Part shown: in pieces, positions 42,975 through 49,248 of the stretch
How the letters are laid out: every line of letters begins with the position of its first letter
Position numbering within the stretch: position 1 is the stretch's first letter
Sequence record: OK254198.1
Reading direction: 5' to 3' (one strand)
DNA: 64,000 nucleotides
From: Escherichia phage PSD2001
The notes under the pieces: model-generated
What the model was told of the DNA's origin: nothing
The model's input: the letters and a program-made list of their open reading frames with translations, nothing else
The model's database searches: none
Made by a program: the position numbers and the translations under genes

Positions 42975-43058
42975 TATATTTTTCCTTATCAATTCATATT
43001 GTTTGTATGTTAATTATATCATATTGGTTTAAAGCATAAATACAAGAAAGGAGGATGT

Positions 43059-43256
43059 ATGCTCAAACTATCTAGTCTAATTCAAGCCATCAAAGGCAGT
43101 CGTAAGCGAACGATTCTGGTCCTTTCGATACTCTGTTTTGTTCTACTCTGGAATTTCATTGTTGCCCCTATTGCATTGACACATGGTGTTATATTACCAG
43201 TCGTCGCGCTCGAATCAGTTGTAGATGTTTCACTAGCATTAATCGGCCTTATATAG
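43059..43256 (+). CDS. small membrane protein (65 aa) on the opposite strand to its neighbours
   Basis: Strong AAGGAGG RBS; two hydrophobic helices; ATAAATA late-promoter-like motif ~30 nt upstream. Confidence 0.5.
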   Translation: MLKLSSLIQAIKGSRKRTILVLSILCFVLLWNFIVAPIALTHGVILPVVALESVVDVSLALIGLI

Positions 43257-43364
43257 GTGGAACTTACTGGTTGTGCCCATCGCTGCAACACAAGGGGTGC
43301 ACTTACCCCAGGTCACAATGGAACATATCCATTCCATCATCGGTTACTTTACCGGAATCCCTTC

Positions 43365-44393
43365 CTAAACTTTTGCGTACTTCGAAAGTCGCATTCTCGC
43401 CATCAATCCTTGAGCAACGTTATCGGCCATATATGATTCGATTTGTTCAGGGGTTGCCCCTTCTGATTTAACCATCTCATTTATGTCTTTTGTATGCCAT
43501 GGCGCATTGTCCCAGAACATAACAGCTTCGCCAGCTTCAACGAGCTTCTTCATACGTTTAATCGTATCCGGATGTCTTGGCTCGTTGTCCATCACCCACA
43601 CTCTGGTTTCTGGATAAGGAACAGCTTCTAATGCTAATGTTCCACCGGTTATCGCAATGCTGTTAGGGATAAACAAACTATCAATCGGACCTTCCATTAC
43701 CCATACACGTTTACGCTCATCAATCTTGTCTACGCCATAGACTTTGGAAGCTTCTGGGTGAGCTTTGATTGTGATATATTTTTGTGGTGCATCTTTGCGA
43801 AGAGCTCGTCCTTGGAAAGATTCGATTTCTTTTTTGCCGTTGAAGATAGGAATAACCAAGCGTGGTTCATTCGTTTCATTCTTATACGTCCCAGGATTAA
43901 CGGAGTTAACTAATGCAGGCCATTGGTTTGTAAACCATAGTCGGTTCCAAACATTGCTTGGAATACATCGACTTTTTACATACTTAACTATCGGATGTGC
44001 TTCTGGTAAAGTATCGAGTCTTTCACAAAAAGCAAGCTGCTCGATAACCGGAGTTTTTTCTGGTTCTTTCGGAGTTTCAATGACTTCATTGCGTTGTCGC
44101 CCGAAGGCGTTCTCCTTGTACTTCTCAACCATATATTCCCGGTGTAAATCAGGCTCAAACTCTTTTATGTATTTGCTTATATGCGTGGAGTAGTCACAGT
44201 TAAAACATTTCACATAAACCGCACCATCAGACGGATTGGTATACGCCCAGAATCGAGCCTTGTGTGAATCTTTCTGGGAGTCCCCGCAAACCTTACAACG
44301 ACAGTTTGCTTTAAATGTGCTCCCGGTGACTTCTCTATAACGTGGTTGATACGATAAAGCTCTGACTGCAAATTCTTTATCAATATATGACAT
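43365..44393 (-). CDS. 61: DNA primase gp61
   Basis: 342 aa; N-terminal zinc-ribbon CRCKVCGDS...CFNC; same length as T4 gp61. Confidence 0.93.
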   Translation of the reverse strand: MSYIDKEFAVRALSYQPRYREVTGSTFKANCRCKVCGDSQKDSHKARFWAYTNPSDGAVYVKCFNCDYSTHISKYIKEFEPDLHREYMVEKYKENAFGRQRNEVIETPKEPEKTPVIEQLAFCERLDTLPEAHPIVKYVKSRCIPSNVWNRLWFTNQWPALVNSVNPGTYKNETNEPRLVIPIFNGKKEIESFQGRALRKDAPQKYITIKAHPEASKVYGVDKIDERKRVWVMEGPIDSLFIPNSIAITGGTLALEAVPYPETRVWVMDNEPRHPDTIKRMKKLVEAGEAVMFWDNAPWHTKDINEMVKSEGATPEQIESYMADNVAQGLMARMRLSKYAKV

Positions 44394-44424: not shown

Positions 44425-44592
44425 TTATACTGTAGGTTTATCGTCTTTGTTCTTACGCTTTTTTGATGGGATTTGTTCAGGGCCTTTATTGACAACTGCC
44501 CCGGAAGTGGTACCTGTTGCGATATTAGTTGGGTTTCCACCTGCATCGCCAGCAACCATATCTTCGTTGATAAAATCTTTGAATGTTTTCAT
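44425..44592 (-). CDS. hypothetical small protein (55 aa); not in ORF track
   Basis: Hand-translated MKTFKDFINEDMVAGDAGGNPTNIATGTTSG...; G-rich RBS; coordinates approximate. Confidence 0.35.
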   Translation of the reverse strand: MKTFKDFINEDMVAGDAGGNPTNIATGTTSGAVVNKGPEQIPSKKRKNKDDKPTV

Positions 44593-44611
44593 AACACCCC
44601 CTTTCCGCTAT

Positions 44612-44803
44612 TTATACAACGAAGATAGCTTTATCACCATTTGCATCAGTCACTTCATAAGTGTCTTCATGATACAACGGAATAATCCAGGTAACACCAT
44701 CATCAGCGATAACATGGATTGCTTCTTGGTCTTGCGACACGATTTCATATTCTTCAAAAATCTGGAAGACCGAAATCTTAGAGCCCGTACACATTGCACT
44801 CAT
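44612..44803 (-). CDS. hypothetical protein (63 aa)
   Basis: ORF track. Confidence 0.4.
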   Translation of the reverse strand: MSAMCTGSKISVFQIFEEYEIVSQDQEAIHVIADDGVTWIIPLYHEDTYEVTDANGDKAIFVV

Positions 44804-44999
44804 ATTGTTCCCTTCTTTTAATTAGTTGACGATGCGCCTTTTTAAGTTTACGAATCTGGCGTTTAGTTGGTCGAGCAACGTAAGCTTGAGTAGTTACTCG
44901 TCCAAAAACTCCATACTTGGGAGACGGCGTATCAATAAAGACTTCCCATTGGCAAGAGTAACTATATATTGCTTTAGAGAATTGGGTCAAAACAAACAT
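44778..44999 (-). CDS. hypothetical basic protein (73 aa)
   Basis: ORF track; basic C-terminal region. Confidence 0.45.
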   Translation of the reverse strand: MFVLTQFSKAIYSYSCQWEVFIDTPSPKYGVFGRVTTQAYVARPTKRQIRKLKKAHRQLIKRREQYECNVYGL

Positions 45000-45000
45000 A

Positions 45001-45046
45001 TTAACCTCGCTTCATGAAGGCATTAAAAATCTGGTCGTCGACAGAC
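45001..45046. repeat. ~45-bp near-identical direct repeat at the 3' ends of two adjacent genes (partner at ~45356-45401)
   Basis: ttaacctcgcttcatgaaggcattaaaaatctggtcgtcgac vs ttaatctcgcttcatgaaagcattaaaaatctggtcgtcaac. Confidence 0.8.
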
Positions 45047-45354
45047 TGTTCTTGAGCTTTGACCCAAGCCCCTTCCAAAATGTCATTTGCTTCAGTAGAT
45101 AGCATGACCCCAATTTCAGGGTTTCCGGTTATCCATGCTGCACAATCACGTACATTCTTTTTATCAAATGGATAGCCGCGAGTATCTTCATAAGGTCCAT
45201 TCATTACCATAAATGAGCGAGCCTTTATGATAACACCATCTTTAACGATAATATAACCAATCGCCTGATTAAACCGAGGCTCACGAAATTCATAATGAGC
45301 ATTACCATCATTATTGCTCGTCAGTTCAAAATTCAGAAAATTATAATAACTCAT
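45001..45354 (-). CDS. hypothetical protein (117 aa) with C-terminal tail SVDDQIFNAFMKRG shared with the next gene
   Basis: ORF track; ~45-bp near-identical DNA repeat at the 3' ends of both genes. Confidence 0.55.
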   Translation of the reverse strand: MSYYNFLNFELTSNNDGNAHYEFREPRFNQAIGYIIVKDGVIIKARSFMVMNGPYEDTRGYPFDKKNVRDCAAWITGNPEIGVMLSTEANDILEGAWVKAQEQSVDDQIFNAFMKRG

Positions 45355-45355
45355 A

Positions 45356-45796
45356 TTAATCTCGCTTCATGAAAGCATTAAAAATCTGGTCGTCAACTGA
45401 ATAAACAGGGGTTTCCAGAAGTTTCAAAAGACTGTTTTTGATGTACTTACCAGGGATACCCATATTAACAATACTGTCATTCAATTCATTATCTGGGATG
45501 ATGTCTTTAAATTCAAACCCGTCAAACTCAACCTTGTCAGGAATACCGTCAGCGAAAAAATAAACCAATTGGTGCATTGTATTGCGCGAAAATAATTTAG
45601 ACTTGACCGCAATAAGTTCTTGCCAATGGTTTAATTCTTTGTTAAGAAGTTTATGAGCAAACGTAATTCTATTGTCACTATCGACAAGAAAATAACCCAG
45701 GTATTGAATGGGTTCGTCGCTCCAAAACATCCTGTATGCTTGTGCATTTTGATTTTTACAACGAAGTTTTTTGATAACTAAATTTCTGTTAATCAT
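45356..45796 (-). CDS. hypothetical protein (146 aa) with C-terminal tail SVDDQIFNAFMKRD
   Basis: Internal Met start lying 1 nt after the sp stop; shared C-terminal tail. Confidence 0.55.
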   Translation of the reverse strand: MINRNLVIKKLRCKNQNAQAYRMFWSDEPIQYLGYFLVDSDNRITFAHKLLNKELNHWQELIAVKSKLFSRNTMHQLVYFFADGIPDKVEFDGFEFKDIIPDNELNDSIVNMGIPGKYIKNSLLKLLETPVYSVDDQIFNAFMKRD

Positions 45797-45797
45797 T

Positions 45798-46091
45798 TTA
45801 TTCACCTGTAACCCATTGAACAATCTTGCTGTTGTCAAATGAAGCATCGCAATACAGAACATAGTTATACTGCATAACGTCACCAGAAGCCAGTTGGTCA
45901 GATACTTCTTTAACCATATCAGGGTGGTCACGTTTAGTAATGTTCATGATATCAGCATAAATCTGATGTTCAACATCGGTCTGGTCAGCAGTCATGGACC
46001 ACTCACAAAGGTCTTTATCAAGTCCAGCAGTAACTGGAGCTGTACCACATGATGCTACGGTAAGAATTGCTGCGATTAATAACTTTTTCAT
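45798..46091 (-). CDS. sp: Spackle periplasmic protein (superinfection exclusion / lysozyme inhibitor)
   Basis: 97 aa; signal peptide; ...DKDLCEWSMTADQT.VE.QI.ADIMNI.KRD.P.M...GDVMQYNYVLYCD... matches T4 Sp. Confidence 0.9.
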   Translation of the reverse strand: MKKLLIAAILTVASCGTAPVTAGLDKDLCEWSMTADQTDVEHQIYADIMNITKRDHPDMVKEVSDQLASGDVMQYNYVLYCDASFDNSKIVQWVTGE

Positions 46092-46109
46092 TTCAATCTC
46101 CTCAGTAGT

Positions 46110-46152
46110 TGATAGGGATAATATACTGCATTATCCCTTTGATGTACACTTA
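46110..46152 (-). promoter_or_regulatory. early promoter with stem-loop (gggataat...attatccc)
   Basis: gatgtacact plus a perfect 8-bp inverted repeat; upstream of sp. Confidence 0.45.
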
Positions 46153-46491
46153 TTTTTCACCTTCAACTGAAAAACCGGTCAATTTGTAATATTCGGCACG
46201 TGCAATATGAAGAGCTGCTTCAATATCAGTAAGGCAGATTTCTTCATTTAACAGTTGCGCTTCAACGGTCAAAATCAGATTACGCAATGCGGTACCCTTA
46301 CGCATGTCTACTTTATGAATTAGCTTGTCATCAACAAAAGCTTCAACCAGCGCATTATAGTTATCAGCAGTCTTCTGGACATACCAGTGAATACCTGCGG
46401 GGTGGAACATGCTAGAACGTTCAAAAGATGGTACACCAACAGCACTCACTTTGATTGTTACTTTTACGCGGTCTTCTGGATTAAAAGCCAT
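46150..46491 (-). CDS. hypothetical protein (113 aa), tandem paralog of 46492..46704
   Basis: Shared segment NYNALVEAFVDDKLIHKVD vs VNNALVKAFVNDNKVFECD. Confidence 0.5.
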   Translation of the reverse strand: MAFNPEDRVKVTIKVSAVGVPSFERSSMFHPAGIHWYVQKTADNYNALVEAFVDDKLIHKVDMRKGTALRNLILTVEAQLLNEEICLTDIEAALHIARAEYYKLTGFSVEGEK

Positions 46492-46704
46492 TTAGATTTC
46501 CTCAGATAAGTGGATACGATAATCACATTCAAAAACTTTATTGTCATTAACAAAGGCTTTCACCAGCGCATTATTCACTTCTGCATACTGCACTGTAACC
46601 CATTCAATCATATTTTGGTCACTAACATCCAGCGCAGTTTCTTTGGTAAACATATTACCATTTTCAAACCAACCAATAAACACTACGTTCTCTAATTTAT
46701 ACAT
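46492..46704 (-). CDS. hypothetical protein (70 aa), tandem paralog of 46150..46491
   Basis: ORF track; shared motif. Confidence 0.5.
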   Translation of the reverse strand: MYKLENVVFIGWFENGNMFTKETALDVSDQNMIEWVTVQYAEVNNALVKAFVNDNKVFECDYRIHLSEEI

Positions 46705-47022
46705 TTAGATTTCCTCACAAAACGCCCAGTCTGCATGATAAACTGTTGCGCCTTTAGTATCATTTAAACAAACCACGTCAACAGGTGCAATCACACGATA
46801 AAGACGGGGTTCTCCTCCATACGAGCGAGCTGCTCTTCCTGCATAGATACGCGCCAAACCAATATCTTCAGTAAAAAACACACGCCCTAAATTTTTCTTA
46901 CGCCCAACTTCTGACAGAACACCAGTTACATCAGGAGGACAAAGCATATTTTGGATTCCAGCATTAGAGCTTGACCCATGATAATAAACTTTGTATTCTG
47001 CCTTGCAATCAATGGTTTTCAT
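46705..47022 (-). CDS. hypothetical protein (105 aa)
   Basis: ORF track; early promoter cassette upstream. Confidence 0.5.
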   Translation of the reverse strand: MKTIDCKAEYKVYYHGSSSNAGIQNMLCPPDVTGVLSEVGRKKNLGRVFFTEDIGLARIYAGRAARSYGGEPRLYRVIAPVDVVCLNDTKGATVYHADWAFCEEI

Positions 47023-47065
47023 TTTATTCTCCAGTAGTTGATAGAGTCATTATAACATAAGAAAA

Positions 47066-47082
47066 AGGGGCTGTAAGCCCCT
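47066..47082 (-). terminator. rho-independent terminator after 47091..47393
   Basis: aggggcTGTAAgcccct + T-run. Confidence 0.65.
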
Positions 47083-47090
47083 TTATTCAC

Positions 47091-47393
47091 TTACGCCAAC
47101 TCATAGTTGTGCATAGTCAGACAACGAATTTTCCCAGTAGTTGGGTGCATAACAGTCACACTAATTGTGTAATCATCGCACACGTTAACAAAAGGTTCAG
47201 CGATAACATATACTTCACCGCCTGCAAGCAGATACTCACGAAGAGAGCTGCGAACAGATGAAGGTTGAACATCGCTTTTGAGCTTTATTAATTTACCAGT
47301 TTGAATGCCTGATGCGATAAGAGCAGCACAGTTTTCATCACGGCGAGCGAATTGTCCAAAATAGTAACGATTCATGTCGGTTTGATTAAACAT
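47091..47393 (-). CDS. hypothetical protein (100 aa)
   Basis: ORF track; terminator hairpin downstream. Confidence 0.5.
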   Translation of the reverse strand: MFNQTDMNRYYFGQFARRDENCAALIASGIQTGKLIKLKSDVQPSSVRSSLREYLLAGGEVYVIAEPFVNVCDDYTISVTVMHPTTGKIRCLTMHNYELA

Positions 47394-47421
47394 ATGGTTT
47401 TCCTTTTAACAGTTGGTTTAT

Positions 47422-47474
47422 TGTGTAACTCAGTATGGAATCATTATGTCCTAAGACAAGGGGGTTGTACACTA
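47422..47474. repeat. 53-bp exact direct repeat, copy 2
   Basis: Same 53-mer as at ~21099-21151. Confidence 0.85.
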
Positions 47475-47480
47475 TTTTAA
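47442..47480 (-). promoter_or_regulatory. early promoter cassette (second copy of the 53-bp exact repeat)
   Basis: Identical to the 21.1-kb copy. Confidence 0.65.
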
Positions 47481-47720
47481 TTCATTAATTAAATGAAAAT
47501 CTTGTGCATTGAAAGTAATGAAAAAATAATCATTCCCTTCAACTGAAGCATGACAAGCAACACTACACCAGCGCCTTGCTCTGTTCAATGAGCAATCCAA
47601 AATTTTAAAAGGCTTCAGACCAACAATGTCAGCTGTTCTTTTATTATGCTCACAAATATCAGCATACTTTTGGAGAGCTTCTTCAGATTTGAACTGGTAA
47701 TGCACATTAACTAATAACAT
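47472..47720 (-). CDS. hypothetical protein (82 aa) in the slot next to gene 41 where T4 carries dmd
   Basis: Position only; GAGGA RBS. Confidence 0.45.
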   Translation of the reverse strand: MLLVNVHYQFKSEEALQKYADICEHNKRTADIVGLKPFKILDCSLNRARRWCSVACHASVEGNDYFFITFNAQDFHLINELK

Positions 47721-47794
47721 TTTATTATCCTCATCAGTAGTTGATGGGATAATAGTACACTCTTTTTATGGTGATGTAAACCCCTAAATGAAAA

Positions 47795-47808
47795 AGACCC
47801 GAAGGTCT
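47795..47808 (-). terminator. rho-independent terminator after gene 41
   Basis: agaccCGAAggtct + T-run right after the stop codon. Confidence 0.65.
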
Positions 47809-49248
47809 TTAGAATTTCATTTGAGCAGCAAGGTCGTCCAGGTCGCTCCTGTTGACCCTGGTTTGTCTATTCATTTCAGCCTGGCGATTCATCTCACCGG
47901 TGGCTTCTTTAACCGTAGGGCCTTGTTTAGGAGCTGAATCATCATCAATCTCGTACCAGCGCTGATTGCCTTTCTTAACACCCATCTTGAATTTATTATA
48001 GTAGTTCTTATCGCCATAACGAGACTTAAGCTGTTTGATTAACTGTAGTCCCATTTGAGCGAATTCTTCGGTCTCAACAACACCCAACATAAAGTCGGCC
48101 GTGTGAGCAATACCAAAGGATTCTGCGATGTCAGCCATATCAATCTCAGCTGCAACGTTTGCGCCCCTTGTTGTCTGCGCTGCAGTCCACAGGACTACAT
48201 TTTTCTCGACCGCCAGACCACGAAGTTCTTCTGCAACCATCTTAATCAGACCGTAACTGTTTTCGGTAAACGTTTTCAGTCTTGAGCTTGCACAGATTGC
48301 CAGGTAGTCAACAATAATCACATCCGGCACAAACCCTTGCTTCAGTTTGTATTCATTCAATAATGCACGGAAGGTATCCGCATGAGCACCGCCAGTTGGA
48401 TATTGTTTTATCTTCAGAGTCCCAAGAGTCCCGGCTGCACGCCATTTTTCCATCTTAGCTTTATATTCCGCCCATGACACATGACCTTCATCAATATCAT
48501 CCAGAGATACATCCAGCAAGTTGGCATCAATACGTTTGGCACATACTTCTTCAGCCATTTCCATGCTTATATAAAGCACGTTATGACCAGTCTGAAGATA
48601 GTCGGCCGCTAACGAACAAAGTCCCAGAGATTTCCCGACGTTGGTCCCGGCCAGTAAAACGTTCTCTGTGCCGTACTCAACTCCACCCTTCGTGATTTTA
48701 TTCAGGATGTTAATGCGGAACGGAACCTTTTTCGATTTGTTCAGATAAGTCTGGAATCGAGCTTCGTAATCGTTTAACCAATCATGGCCCAGAGCAGAGT
48801 CAAAACAGATAGACAATGCATCGCGCATGATGTCGGGGATAGCACCAATATCCGGGATTCGTTTATCACGTTTATCTTTCGGAAGTTCGGCATTACTCTG
48901 GATTTCGATAATCCTGGATGTGGCATTGAACATCGCAGATTTCTGCACATACTTCTCGGTTTCTCTAACCAACCATTCTTGGTCTTCTGGAGTATCGGCC
49001 AGGACTCCTAAGAGTTTCTTTGTGCCTTCATATTCGACTTCAGAAAGGTCAGAACTGTCGAGCGCGATATCAAGTGCAGTCTTAGTTGGTACCGCTTGAT
49101 ATTCTTTTACGTGTTCGTTAATCGTATTAAAAAGGGTCTTCGCGGGACCCTTTTCAAAATATGTGTTATTCAGATACGGCCAGACTTTAACAAAATATTC
49201 CTTGTTAAAGAGTAGCTGGGATAAAATAGTTTCTACCACTTCCACCAC
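47809..49248 (-). CDS. 41: replicative DNA helicase gp41 (DnaB-like)
   Basis: 479 aa; Walker A ...GTNVGKSLGLCSLA...; close to the T4 gp41 length. Confidence 0.95.
   Translation of the reverse strand: MVEVVETILSQLLFNKEYFVKVWPYLNNTYFEKGPAKTLFNTINEHVKEYQAVPTKTALDIALDSSDLSEVEYEGTKKLLGVLADTPEDQEWLVRETEKYVQKSAMFNATSRIIEIQSNAELPKDKRDKRIPDIGAIPDIMRDALSICFDSALGHDWLNDYEARFQTYLNKSKKVPFRINILNKITKGGVEYGTENVLLAGTNVGKSLGLCSLAADYLQTGHNVLYISMEMAEEVCAKRIDANLLDVSLDDIDEGHVSWAEYKAKMEKWRAAGTLGTLKIKQYPTGGAHADTFRALLNEYKLKQGFVPDVIIVDYLAICASSRLKTFTENSYGLIKMVAEELRGLAVEKNVVLWTAAQTTRGANVAAEIDMADIAESFGIAHTADFMLGVVETEEFAQMGLQLIKQLKSRYGDKNYYNKFKMGVKKGNQRWYEIDDDSAPKQGPTVKEATGEMNRQAEMNRQTRVNRSDLDDLAAQMKF

Follow-up and report, generated by a model that had tools for sequence, protein, structure and literature searches.

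The interval between primase gene 61 and helicase gene 41 of Escherichia phage PSD2001 raises the question of whether this phage has kept the anti-toxin genes that T4 carries at the same place or has exchanged them for others. Within the window, by which the whole stretch of 64,000 nucleotides (nt) analysed from sequence record OK254198.1 is meant, the interval occupies positions 44425-47720 (~3.3 kb), with gene 61 (43365-44393) on one side and gene 41 (47809-49248) on the other. It contains 11 tightly spaced open reading frames (ORFs) of 55-146 amino acids (aa), all of them, like the two flanking genes, on the minus strand. The T4 gene order is 41, dmd, 61.4, sp, 61.2, 61.1, 61, with the same flanks, and the region is the one that Srikant et al. 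described in 2022 as the anti-toxin-antitoxin (anti-TA) island (PMC9391042). An earlier note on this DNA had placed about ten small ORFs here with correct coordinates, in what is indeed the region where T4 keeps anti-defence genes. It recognised Sp, saw no assignable function in the other ORFs and proposed that they encode alternative anti-defence factors matched to the hosts of the phage.

The island is probably the Gaprivervirus (SP18/VR20-like) version of the T-even 61-41 hyperplastic region, T4's "anti-TA island", and most of its genes are plausible counter-defence factors. Nine of the 11 ORFs can be given a sequence-based assignment, the remaining two being O10 and O2. The ratio of nonsynonymous to synonymous substitution rates (dN/dS; Nei-Gojobori, against orthologues in related phages) is 0.01-0.34 for each island ORF; therefore, all 11 are real genes under purifying selection. 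A stretch of 3.5 kb spanning the island shows 96-97% nt identity to Escherichia phages 212, UPEC01, TH41 and TH44, and Shigella phage SP18 covers 90% of it; all five belong to the genus Gaprivervirus, subfamily Tevenvirinae. In the public Gaprivervirus records dmd and sp are already annotated, and O3, O4, O5, O9 and O10 are hypothetical or mislabelled. The ORFs, in the order of transcription, are as follows:

47472-47720, minus strand: O11, 82 aa, similar to the N-terminal part of goF, in the T4 dmd position
47091-47393, minus strand: O10, 100 aa, phrog_17014 only, restricted to Gaprivervirus
46705-47022, minus strand: O9, 105 aa, stand-alone protein assigned an Arr-like ADP-ribosyltransferase fold
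46492-46704, minus strand: O8, 70 aa, Dmd
46150-46491, minus strand: O7, 113 aa, Dmd-like domain (~residues 4-64) and a 45-aa C-terminal module
45798-46091, minus strand: sp, 97 aa, Spackle
45356-45796, minus strand: O5, 146 aa from an ATG also used by SP18, AdfA-type C-terminal tail, phrog_8539
45001-45354, minus strand: O4, 117 aa, apparently one copy of the AdfA repeat domain and the tail
44778-44999, minus strand: O3, 73 aa, TifA (T4 61.4) family, DUF7279
44612-44803, minus strand: O2, 63 aa, phrog_3249, overlapping the end of O3 by 26 nt
44425-44592, minus strand: O1, 55 aa, T4 61.1 orthologue

Genes shared with the T4 island and their neighbours

By sequence comparison, O8 is unambiguously Dmd, the antitoxin against RnlA/LsoA-type HEPN RNases. 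It matches Pfam Dmd (PF17587) above the gathering score (2.9e-20, 72.8 bits, cut-off 27) and phrog_2102 at 1.9e-33, aligns over its full length with the solved structures of Dmd (5I8J_A, 1.4e-22) and of Dmd in the LsoA complex (5HY3_B, 1.3e-16), and is 56% identical to T4 Dmd. Like its T4 homologue, it would plug the groove of RnlA/LsoA-type HEPN RNases.

The neighbouring O7 carries what appears to be a Dmd-like domain, while it is not a member of the Dmd family by the Pfam criterion. The tandem paralog pair that the earlier note had seen at 46150-46704 was confirmed: O7 and O8 are 42% identical over 31 aa, and a 34-nt DNA stretch is 88% identical to dmd. An alignment of O7 with T4 Dmd covers 56 aa at 34% identity (E 4e-6), and phrog_2102 is matched at 9e-6. 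A stand-alone 50-aa ORF of Dhakavirus ESCO10, from the 39-dexA accessory region (positions 1489-1641 of locus L061), shares 67% identity with the last 45 residues of O7, and ORFs weakly similar to this C-terminal module (window 46150-46290) occur in unrelated phages, including phiWec179-type and Pseudomonas phages. O7 is chimeric, because its N-terminal part is Dmd-like and its C-terminal module matches the separate ESCO10 ORF. The latter is labelled "cef modifier of suppressor tRNAs", and a kinship of the O7 C-terminus with T4 Cef was considered and rejected; no alignment to T4 Cef was obtained, and therefore the label looks positional. Full-length O7 is present in only 14 phage records. SP18 is without it: the sequence missing there, window 46159-46515, comprises O7 and a 3' extension of dmd, the junction is in frame (DYR/.../EK-stop), and the SP18 dmd ends differently. 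O7 could be a second, diverged binder of the Dmd type, with another toxin of the RnlA family as its possible target.

O3 belongs to the TifA family. It reaches 72.2 bits (3.3e-20) against Pfam DUF7279 (PF23945, cut-off 24.5), T4 61.4 (TifA) reaches 72.7 bits (2.3e-20) against the same model, and the two proteins are 39% identical (E 9e-13). O3 has a Pro-Thr cap (...VARPTKRQIRKLKKAHRQLIKRREQ...) followed by a basic C-terminal helix, ARPTKRQIRKLKKAHRQLIKRR, which is a conserved TifA feature according to Guegler et al. (PMC10853763). Its dN/dS is 0.01-0.05. By analogy with T4, O3 would bind a ToxN-type RNase together with RNA. The T4 tifA is next to dmd, whereas O3 is separated from dmd by 1.5 kb on the downstream side; its neighbours are O4 and O2, and it would belong to the sp transcription unit. 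In JS98-like loci (L007-L011) and in VR25 (L006) there are two DUF7279 genes, one by dmd (79-98 aa) and one of the O3 type near 61.1; the PSD2001 island has the O3-type gene only. O3 may thus represent a TifA paralogue in a new position, and paralogous TifAs may possibly differ in ToxN specificity.

The product of sp can be assigned by homology to Spackle, the periplasmic superinfection-exclusion protein, in agreement with the earlier note. It matches Pfam T4_Spackle (PF25676) over residues 1-96 of 96 (2.5e-43, 147 bits, cut-off 27), is 65% identical to T4 Sp and has a visible hydrophobic N-terminal leader (MKKLLIAAILTVASCG). As with the T4 homologue, it would block the lysozyme (gp5) of superinfecting phages.

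O1 is 75% identical to T4 61.1 (phrog_1823, 1e-32). In more distant T4-like phages (L016-L027, IMG/VR) the 61.1 sequence forms the C-terminal ~50 aa of a 123-177-aa protein encoded just upstream of gene 61, and it also corresponds to positions 108-152 of 156 in phrog_2086. T4 61.1 and O1 may be a remnant or minimal form of a larger conserved gene beside the primase. The preceding O2 matches phrog_3249 at 2.5e-33, occurs also in JS98-like and RB69-like loci and has a dN/dS of 0.04-0.10.

The 82-aa ORF that the earlier note had put in the dmd slot, O11, does lie directly downstream of gene 41, in T4's dmd place; it is goF-like and not a substitute for Dmd. It matches phrog_2980 (72 positions, labelled goF) at 2e-20, and its residues 4-64 are 33% identical to residues 7-69 of T4 goF (comC-alpha; E 1e-7), the similarity being confined to the N-terminal part of the 141-aa goF. 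Of the 83 phage records with O11, some are from Tequatrovirus, and in these, too, the gene is part of the 61-41 island. The T4 annotation of goF reads "overcomes rho mutant effects". O10 is confined to Gaprivervirus (21 records, all with at least 95% identity; dN/dS 0.2). By eye it could pass for a degenerate O9 paralogue, "RYYFGQ" resembling "VYYHGS" and "GGEVYVIAEP" resembling "GGEPRLYRVIAP"; this was ruled out, as two hidden Markov models of the O9 family score O10 near zero, like other island proteins. Sequence searches of the unassigned island ORFs in PADLOC, NCBIfam and PDB gave only chance-level matches.

The AdfA-tail proteins O4 and O5

Full-length AdfA was not found in the island. 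Pfam AdfA (PF23813, 211 positions) matches only the last 16 residues of O4 (model positions 196-211), with 20.6 bits against a cut-off of 27, whereas T4 61.2 reaches 450 bits with the same model; O5 has no match to it. The profile searches against Dmd and AdfA that the earlier note had suggested therefore bore out the former, which lies above its cut-off, and for the latter returned a tail only. What O4 and O5 share with AdfA is the C-terminal peptide SVDDQIFNAFMKRG, identical over 13 residues in O4, O5 and T4 61.2. In O4 and O5 the tail has the form SVDDQIFNAFMKR(G/D), the pattern being S(V/I)DDQIFNAFM(K/N)(R/K)(G/D). The peptide was found at 858 places in 703 phage genomes, and therefore many genomes carry two tail-bearing genes.

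The relationship of O4 to AdfA appears to extend beyond this peptide. When the tail is kept, hhalign pairs the O4 family over its whole length with AdfA residues 96-208 (probability 97%). The profiles were also compared with all tails removed, using 40 column-shuffle controls from which z-scores were obtained. O4 scored 23.2 against the C-terminal half of AdfA (z 4.7) and 23.1 against the N-terminal half (z 6.6), and the two AdfA halves scored 25.3 against each other (z 5.4). These scores exceed every one of the 40 shuffles, and therefore AdfA is read as an internal duplication of a ~95-aa domain and O4 as a single copy with the tail. The scores of O5 against either AdfA half or O4 were 14-16 (z 1.0-1.6). 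O5 matches phrog_8539 at 7e-91; MAFFT aligns its body colinearly, with the common motifs G-x-hydrophobic-x-V-(K/D)-D and F-x-x-N. Deeper family searches did not raise the power of the profiles, the O4 and AdfA families being narrow (8 and 16 clusters, respectively).

An AlphaFold2 model of O4 (mean confidence score, pLDDT, 78.6) shows a sheet of five strands, a helix, one more strand and, at the C-terminus, a long helix in which the tail lies. A Foldseek search of BFVD with this model returned its own family, a 145-aa VR25 protein (E 2.6e-4, template modelling (TM) score 0.57) and a 212-aa protein (E 5.5e-3, TM score 0.49). The VR25 protein is presumed to belong to the O5 family, given its length and the phage that encodes it; the 212-aa protein has the length of AdfA.

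The slot downstream of sp is filled differently in related loci. AdfA stands there alone in T4-like phages, AdfA is followed by an O4-like gene in L013, and an O4-like gene is alone in L038; JS98-like phages and VR26 have O5 alone, and PSD2001 has O5 and O4. Both L013 and L038 are Tequatrovirus islands, and in L038 the O4-like gene stands where T4 has AdfA. The gene turnover can be followed in two copies of a direct repeat (D1):

44997-45045: 49-nt direct repeat, copy 1, across the end of O4 and the start of O3
45352-45400: 49-nt direct repeat, copy 2, comprising the last 14 tail codons, the stop, one base and the ATG of the next gene

The copies are 92% identical and bracket O4 as a 355-bp cassette. 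In phages without O4 (L005, L007) both flanks match with a 49-nt overlap and a single repeat copy is kept, which therefore points to gain or loss by homologous recombination between the tails.

Since the O4 indels fall exactly at these repeats, it could be argued that the tail is a translated DNA or RNA element, either a recombination joint or a translational-coupling signal, and not a functional peptide. Its last codons include the Shine-Dalgarno sequence of the downstream gene (GAGG), and the stop-N-ATG junction is invariant. This explanation is nevertheless very unlikely. Among 15 distinct tails, nine sites vary at codon position 3, against three at position 1 and two at position 2, with the amino acids fixed, and the concentration of variation at third positions means that the peptide itself is under selection, beyond any DNA joint or ribosome-binding site. 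Moreover, the O4 and O5 tails differ by three synonymous changes in 14 codons, and the conserved part reaches ~30 nt past what a ribosome-binding site needs.

AdfA is reported to act by binding DarT1, and a single substitution at residue 164 to alter its specificity (PMC11257639). On the reading of the tail as a functional peptide, O4, and probably O5, would be AdfA-type stoichiometric inhibitors with a variable target-recognising body and a constant amphipathic C-terminal helix, ...DDQIFNAFM(K/N)RG. The constant helix of O4, O5 and AdfA may engage a common partner, the recognition bodies being exchangeable.

O9 and the ADP-ribosyltransferase fold

On the comparisons made, O9 has the ADP-ribosyltransferase (ART) fold and falls in the Arr-like clade. 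A direct search returned no sequence match in Pfam (E up to 0.1, including Arr-ms and other ART models), NCBIfam, PADLOC or PDB. Of the 115 close homologues of O9, one carries the depositor's label "ADP-ribosyl transferase". When 1.84 billion representatives were searched with a profile, 242 relatives emerged; many are stand-alone proteins of ~100 aa and many others are domains in proteins of 250-3,900 aa. The O9 profile matches long proteins (P0134, P0150, P0146 and others) at E 1e-25 to 1e-28, and the regions matched reach 27-31 bits on Pfam Arr-ms (PF12120; cut-off 25), the link of O9 to Arr-ms thus appearing to be transitive only. The original profile found nothing in PDB, and Arr was reached only after broadening with the long-protein homologues: the broadened profile matches solved Arr (2HW2, 9IAF) at E 0.003, aligning H15 to Arr H19 and the invariant F49 to Arr Y49. 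The β1 His-Gly-Ser/Thr motif and residues around the predicted NAD+ pocket (H15, G16, F49, T51, Y60, A61, R63) are invariant in O9.

In the long proteins the O9-type domain is accompanied by a lambda-type portal together with a 2H/Acb1-like domain, by ART-PolyVal and NUDIX, by GNAT and Toprim, or by a phage minor-tail domain. In P0157, P0152, P0139 and P0140 the O9-type domain sits in giant proteins, some of which have two different ART domains. Such an architecture resembles the "polyvalent protein" injected conflict effectors (PMC5512222). The domain of O9 would also travel inside giant, probably injected, phage proteins.

A single O9 homologue per genome, with an identity of at least 59%, is present in 609 phage records; nearly all of these homologues are labelled hypothetical, and the phages infect Escherichia, Klebsiella, Acinetobacter, Aeromonas, Vibrio and others. 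The identity of O9 exceeds that of the neighbouring primase in the same comparisons. Among the related loci compared, the islands of T4 and other Tequatrovirus phages have no O9; its absence from T4, in spite of its presence in ~600 T4-like genomes, may explain the lack of study. A 2022 survey of viral NAD+/ADP-ribose systems reported Arr-family ARTs only in actinobacterial and Sinorhizobium phages (PMC9503650), and in the literature we found neither a characterised Arr-like ART of T4-like phages nor a paper on the O9 family. The broad conservation argues against a host-matched factor and points to a conserved target. Most likely, O9 is an NAD+-binding Arr-like ART made early, which would modify a broadly conserved host target, or else a nucleic-acid or small-molecule target.

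It is possible, though rather doubtful, that O9 is instead a catalytically dead ART fold that acts by binding, for example by sequestering NAD+/ADP-ribose or as a decoy. Of the catalytic H-Y-D/E triad, the His is invariant in O9, the position of Arr Y49 is occupied by the invariant Phe, and no conserved acidic residue can be aligned to Arr D84. N87 lies opposite D84 by ungapped extension, which is uncertain, and E103 is near-invariant in the T4-like subfamily only, being absent from the long-protein homologues. The missing match to any Pfam ART model points the same way, and these features weigh against an active enzyme. On the other hand, the β1 motif and many predicted NAD+-pocket residues are invariant, and a Phe could still stack on nicotinamide. 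Tpt1, the best structural match to O9, likewise lacks the classic Glu. Because of the Tyr-to-Phe change and the unplaced acidic residue, catalysis by O9 is plausible and unproven.

Putative expression units, rival readings and known systems

The three sigma-70-type early-promoter-like sites of the island share a downstream block, ATCAACTACTG (repeats D2, D9, D12), and two of them are accompanied by hairpins:

47793-47810: terminator-like hairpin at the end of gene 41, just before the promoter-like site 47780-47752
47752-47780, minus strand: promoter-like site (TTTACA-17-TACTAT) upstream of O11, from consensus scan and sequence reading
47049-47084, minus strand: composite upstream of O9, resembling a promoter-early stem-loop (PeSL), in which the hairpin AAAGGGGCTTACAGCCCCTTT overlaps the -35 box (CTTACA, 17 nt, TATAAT)
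46120-46148, minus strand: promoter-like site (TGTACA-17-TATATT) upstream of sp, from consensus scan and sequence reading

In the composite, the hairpin at 47084-47064 overlaps the -35 box of the promoter-like site at 47077-47049. The region has more promoter-like sites than its shuffles (28 vs. 11.8 ± 2.6). The 11 genes are probably early and organised in three promoter-like units. The first would comprise O11 and O10, the second O9, Dmd (O8) and O7, with O9 co-transcribed with dmd, and the third Sp, O5, O4, O3, O2 and 61.1, running into gene 61.

Composite terminator-promoter elements (PeSL) mediate module shuffling in T4-type phages (PMC2839356, PMC4122927), and the arrangement of a hairpin and an early-promoter-like site at cassette boundaries can be recognised at 47084-47049 and 47810-47752. 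A 21-nt junction repeat, GAGGAAATCTAAATG, flanks dmd (46489-46509 and 46702-46722). It codes for "EEI-stop-ATG" and includes the Shine-Dalgarno sequence of the next gene; O9 and Dmd both end in E-E-I, for which the same 16 nt are used. Since this sequence also provides the following gene with its ribosome-binding site and start codon, the C-termini are partly set by translational coupling. We assume that cassettes are gained and lost by recombination at such short conserved junctions, namely the 49-nt tail repeat, the "EEI-stop-ATG" junction and the PeSL-like promoter cassettes. The cassette indels match short repeats exactly and provide concrete examples of how such islands are rebuilt.

Two further observations concern the surroundings and the public annotation. 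T4 has the dam methyltransferase gene between 56 and 61, and PSD2001 has no dam there (window 42993-43364 vs. L003 347-1126); in its place is a short gap with small plus-strand ORFs, one of which (43059-43256) has a very hydrophobic 65-aa product, and UPEC01 annotates coding sequences at these ORF positions. In the UPEC01 record (MW233709) several product names are doubtful, namely "clamp loaded subunit DNA polymerase" for the O9 homologue, "nucleotidyltransferase" for the TifA-family gene, "major capsid domain-containing protein" for 61.1 and "periplasmic rIV" for Sp.

How far do these data favour an anti-TA island of the T4 type over other explanations? According to the proposal of the earlier note, Dmd and AdfA would be gone from the island, and alternative anti-defence factors, unrelated to them and fitted to the phage's own hosts, would be encoded instead. 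There is something to be said for it, as full-length AdfA is gone, two shorter tail proteins stand in its place and the tail match is below the cut-off; O7, O10 and O11 are patchy among close relatives (14, 21 and 83 records), as host-matched factors might be, and O10 and O2 have no known relatives. However, Dmd is unambiguous and a TifA-family gene and 61.1 are present, so that the premise that only Sp can be recognised was wrong and the proposal is refuted for Dmd and TifA. O4 appears to be a relative of the AdfA repeat, and O9 is conserved in 609 genomes across many host genera, which does not fit host-matching. Nor are the other ORFs without assignable function, since Dmd, TifA-family, 61.1, goF-N, ART-fold and AdfA-tail genes are all recognised. 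This explanation is, on the whole, quite improbable. Another one, which we regard as unlikely and yet give somewhat more credit, sees in the interval a hyperplastic set of early host-takeover and RNA-metabolism genes and fragments, with O2, O5, O9, O10, O11 and 61.1 serving mostly physiology or phage-phage competition. Sp targets other phages, not host defence. The T4 annotation ties goF to Rho and mRNA effects; O9, O2 and 61.1 are highly conserved (dN/dS 0.04-0.11), unlike fast-evolving anti-defence genes, and there is no PADLOC match, the anti-defence Pfam matches being Dmd and the AdfA tail only. Against this, three of the five genes in the T4 interval have experimentally shown anti-toxin activity (PMC9391042, PMC11257639), O4, O5 and O7 are paralogues or relatives of those proteins, and proteins of the polyvalent type, to which a role in phage-host conflict is ascribed (PMC5512222), combine the O9 domain with ART-PolyVal, Acb1-like, NUDIX and GNAT domains.

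In favour of the reading of the island as a Gaprivervirus anti-TA island, the concept and the modes of action of Dmd, TifA and AdfA are already published (PMC9391042, PMC10853763, PMC8266594, PMC11257639). Several results weigh against it. All mechanisms proposed here would be carried over from T4/RB69 homologues that are only 34-56% identical. Some TifA homologues, taken from other coliphages, were inactive against every ToxN tested (PMC10853763), and a T4 adfA deletion had no phenotype on DarTG1 (PMC11257639); homology is therefore no guarantee of the same target. O7 stays under the Pfam Dmd gathering score (19.1 bits vs. 27, model positions 29-59 only). The body of O5 is not significantly similar to AdfA by sequence, its tail-less profile comparison being at noise; the Foldseek hint and the colinear MAFFT alignment are what speaks for a kinship, and the Foldseek links from the O4 model include the identical tail, which contributes to the match. 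O10 has phrog_17014 only and no match in Pfam, NCBIfam, PADLOC or PDB; O2, with no match in Pfam or PDB, has no assignable function. The putative promoters are consensus matches only.

If the anti-TA reading holds, PSD2001 kept the known anti-toxin genes rather than lost them, which corrects a wrong impression, and its "hypothetical" ORFs become specific candidates. O4 and O5 would mark AdfA as an internal duplication and its C-terminal peptide as the conserved element of a wider family (703 genomes). A more far-reaching proposal, which joins a new ~100-aa early Arr-like ART effector family, represented by O9, to AdfA-type proteins as modular inhibitors, must be regarded as tentative and possible at best. 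Were it true, the O9 family, made by hundreds of T4-like phages and carried by others within giant injected proteins, would supply enzymes for counter-defence or host takeover that attack a conserved bacterial target, as AcrIF11 does with a CRISPR complex; the DDQIFNAFM helix would have a shared function, perhaps docking to a common partner or a conserved toxin surface; and interchangeable ~95-aa bodies would set target specificity, the tail-coding repeat doubling as a swap joint.

The closest known system is the T4 anti-TA island (dmd, tifA/61.4, sp, adfA/61.2, 61.1; PMC9391042). The two islands agree in their flanks (41 and 61), strand and apparently early expression, in having Dmd, TifA-family, Sp, 61.1 and AdfA-tail proteins, and in cassette turnover by recombination at short homologies. 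They differ in size, five genes in T4 against 11 in PSD2001. In PSD2001 dmd is pushed away from gene 41 by three extra genes (goF-N-like O11, O10 and ART-fold O9), the tifA slot beside dmd holds the Dmd-like chimera, with the TifA-family gene near 61.1, and the two-domain AdfA is replaced by two shorter proteins with its tail. SP18 (NC_014595), VR20, 212 and UPEC01 are 96-97% identical at the nt level over the island, with dmd and sp annotated, SP18 differing in its lack of O7 and its differently ended dmd. AdfA itself (T4/RB69 gp61.2; PF23813) has the identical C-terminal peptide and the same slot downstream of sp, and the O4 body aligns to each of its repeats; in contrast to AdfA, O4 (117 aa) and O5 (146 aa) are single-domain proteins below the Pfam cut-off, and the O5 body is not significantly similar.

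As for O9, the rifampin ADP-ribosyltransferase Arr (PF12120; 2HW2) differs from it in that O9 misses the Arr-ms model, has Phe for Y49 and is a stand-alone early gene; rifamycin is an unlikely target. No sequence-level relationship of O9 to AcrIF11, a phage ADP-ribosyltransferase that acts as an anti-CRISPR, or to Tpt1/KptA emerged; compared with Tpt1/KptA, O9 is without the N-terminal RNA-binding lobe, and the Arg-His-Arg-Arg tetrad was not identified in it. Already known before this analysis were the island concept (Srikant et al. 2022), the three mechanisms and near-identical GenBank sequences. New are the assignment of nine of the 11 ORFs, the evidence for a duplicated domain in AdfA with single-domain relatives that share a selected C-terminal peptide, the coincidence of indel boundaries with short repeats, and the recognition of a widely conserved, unstudied early gene with a probable Arr-like ART fold.

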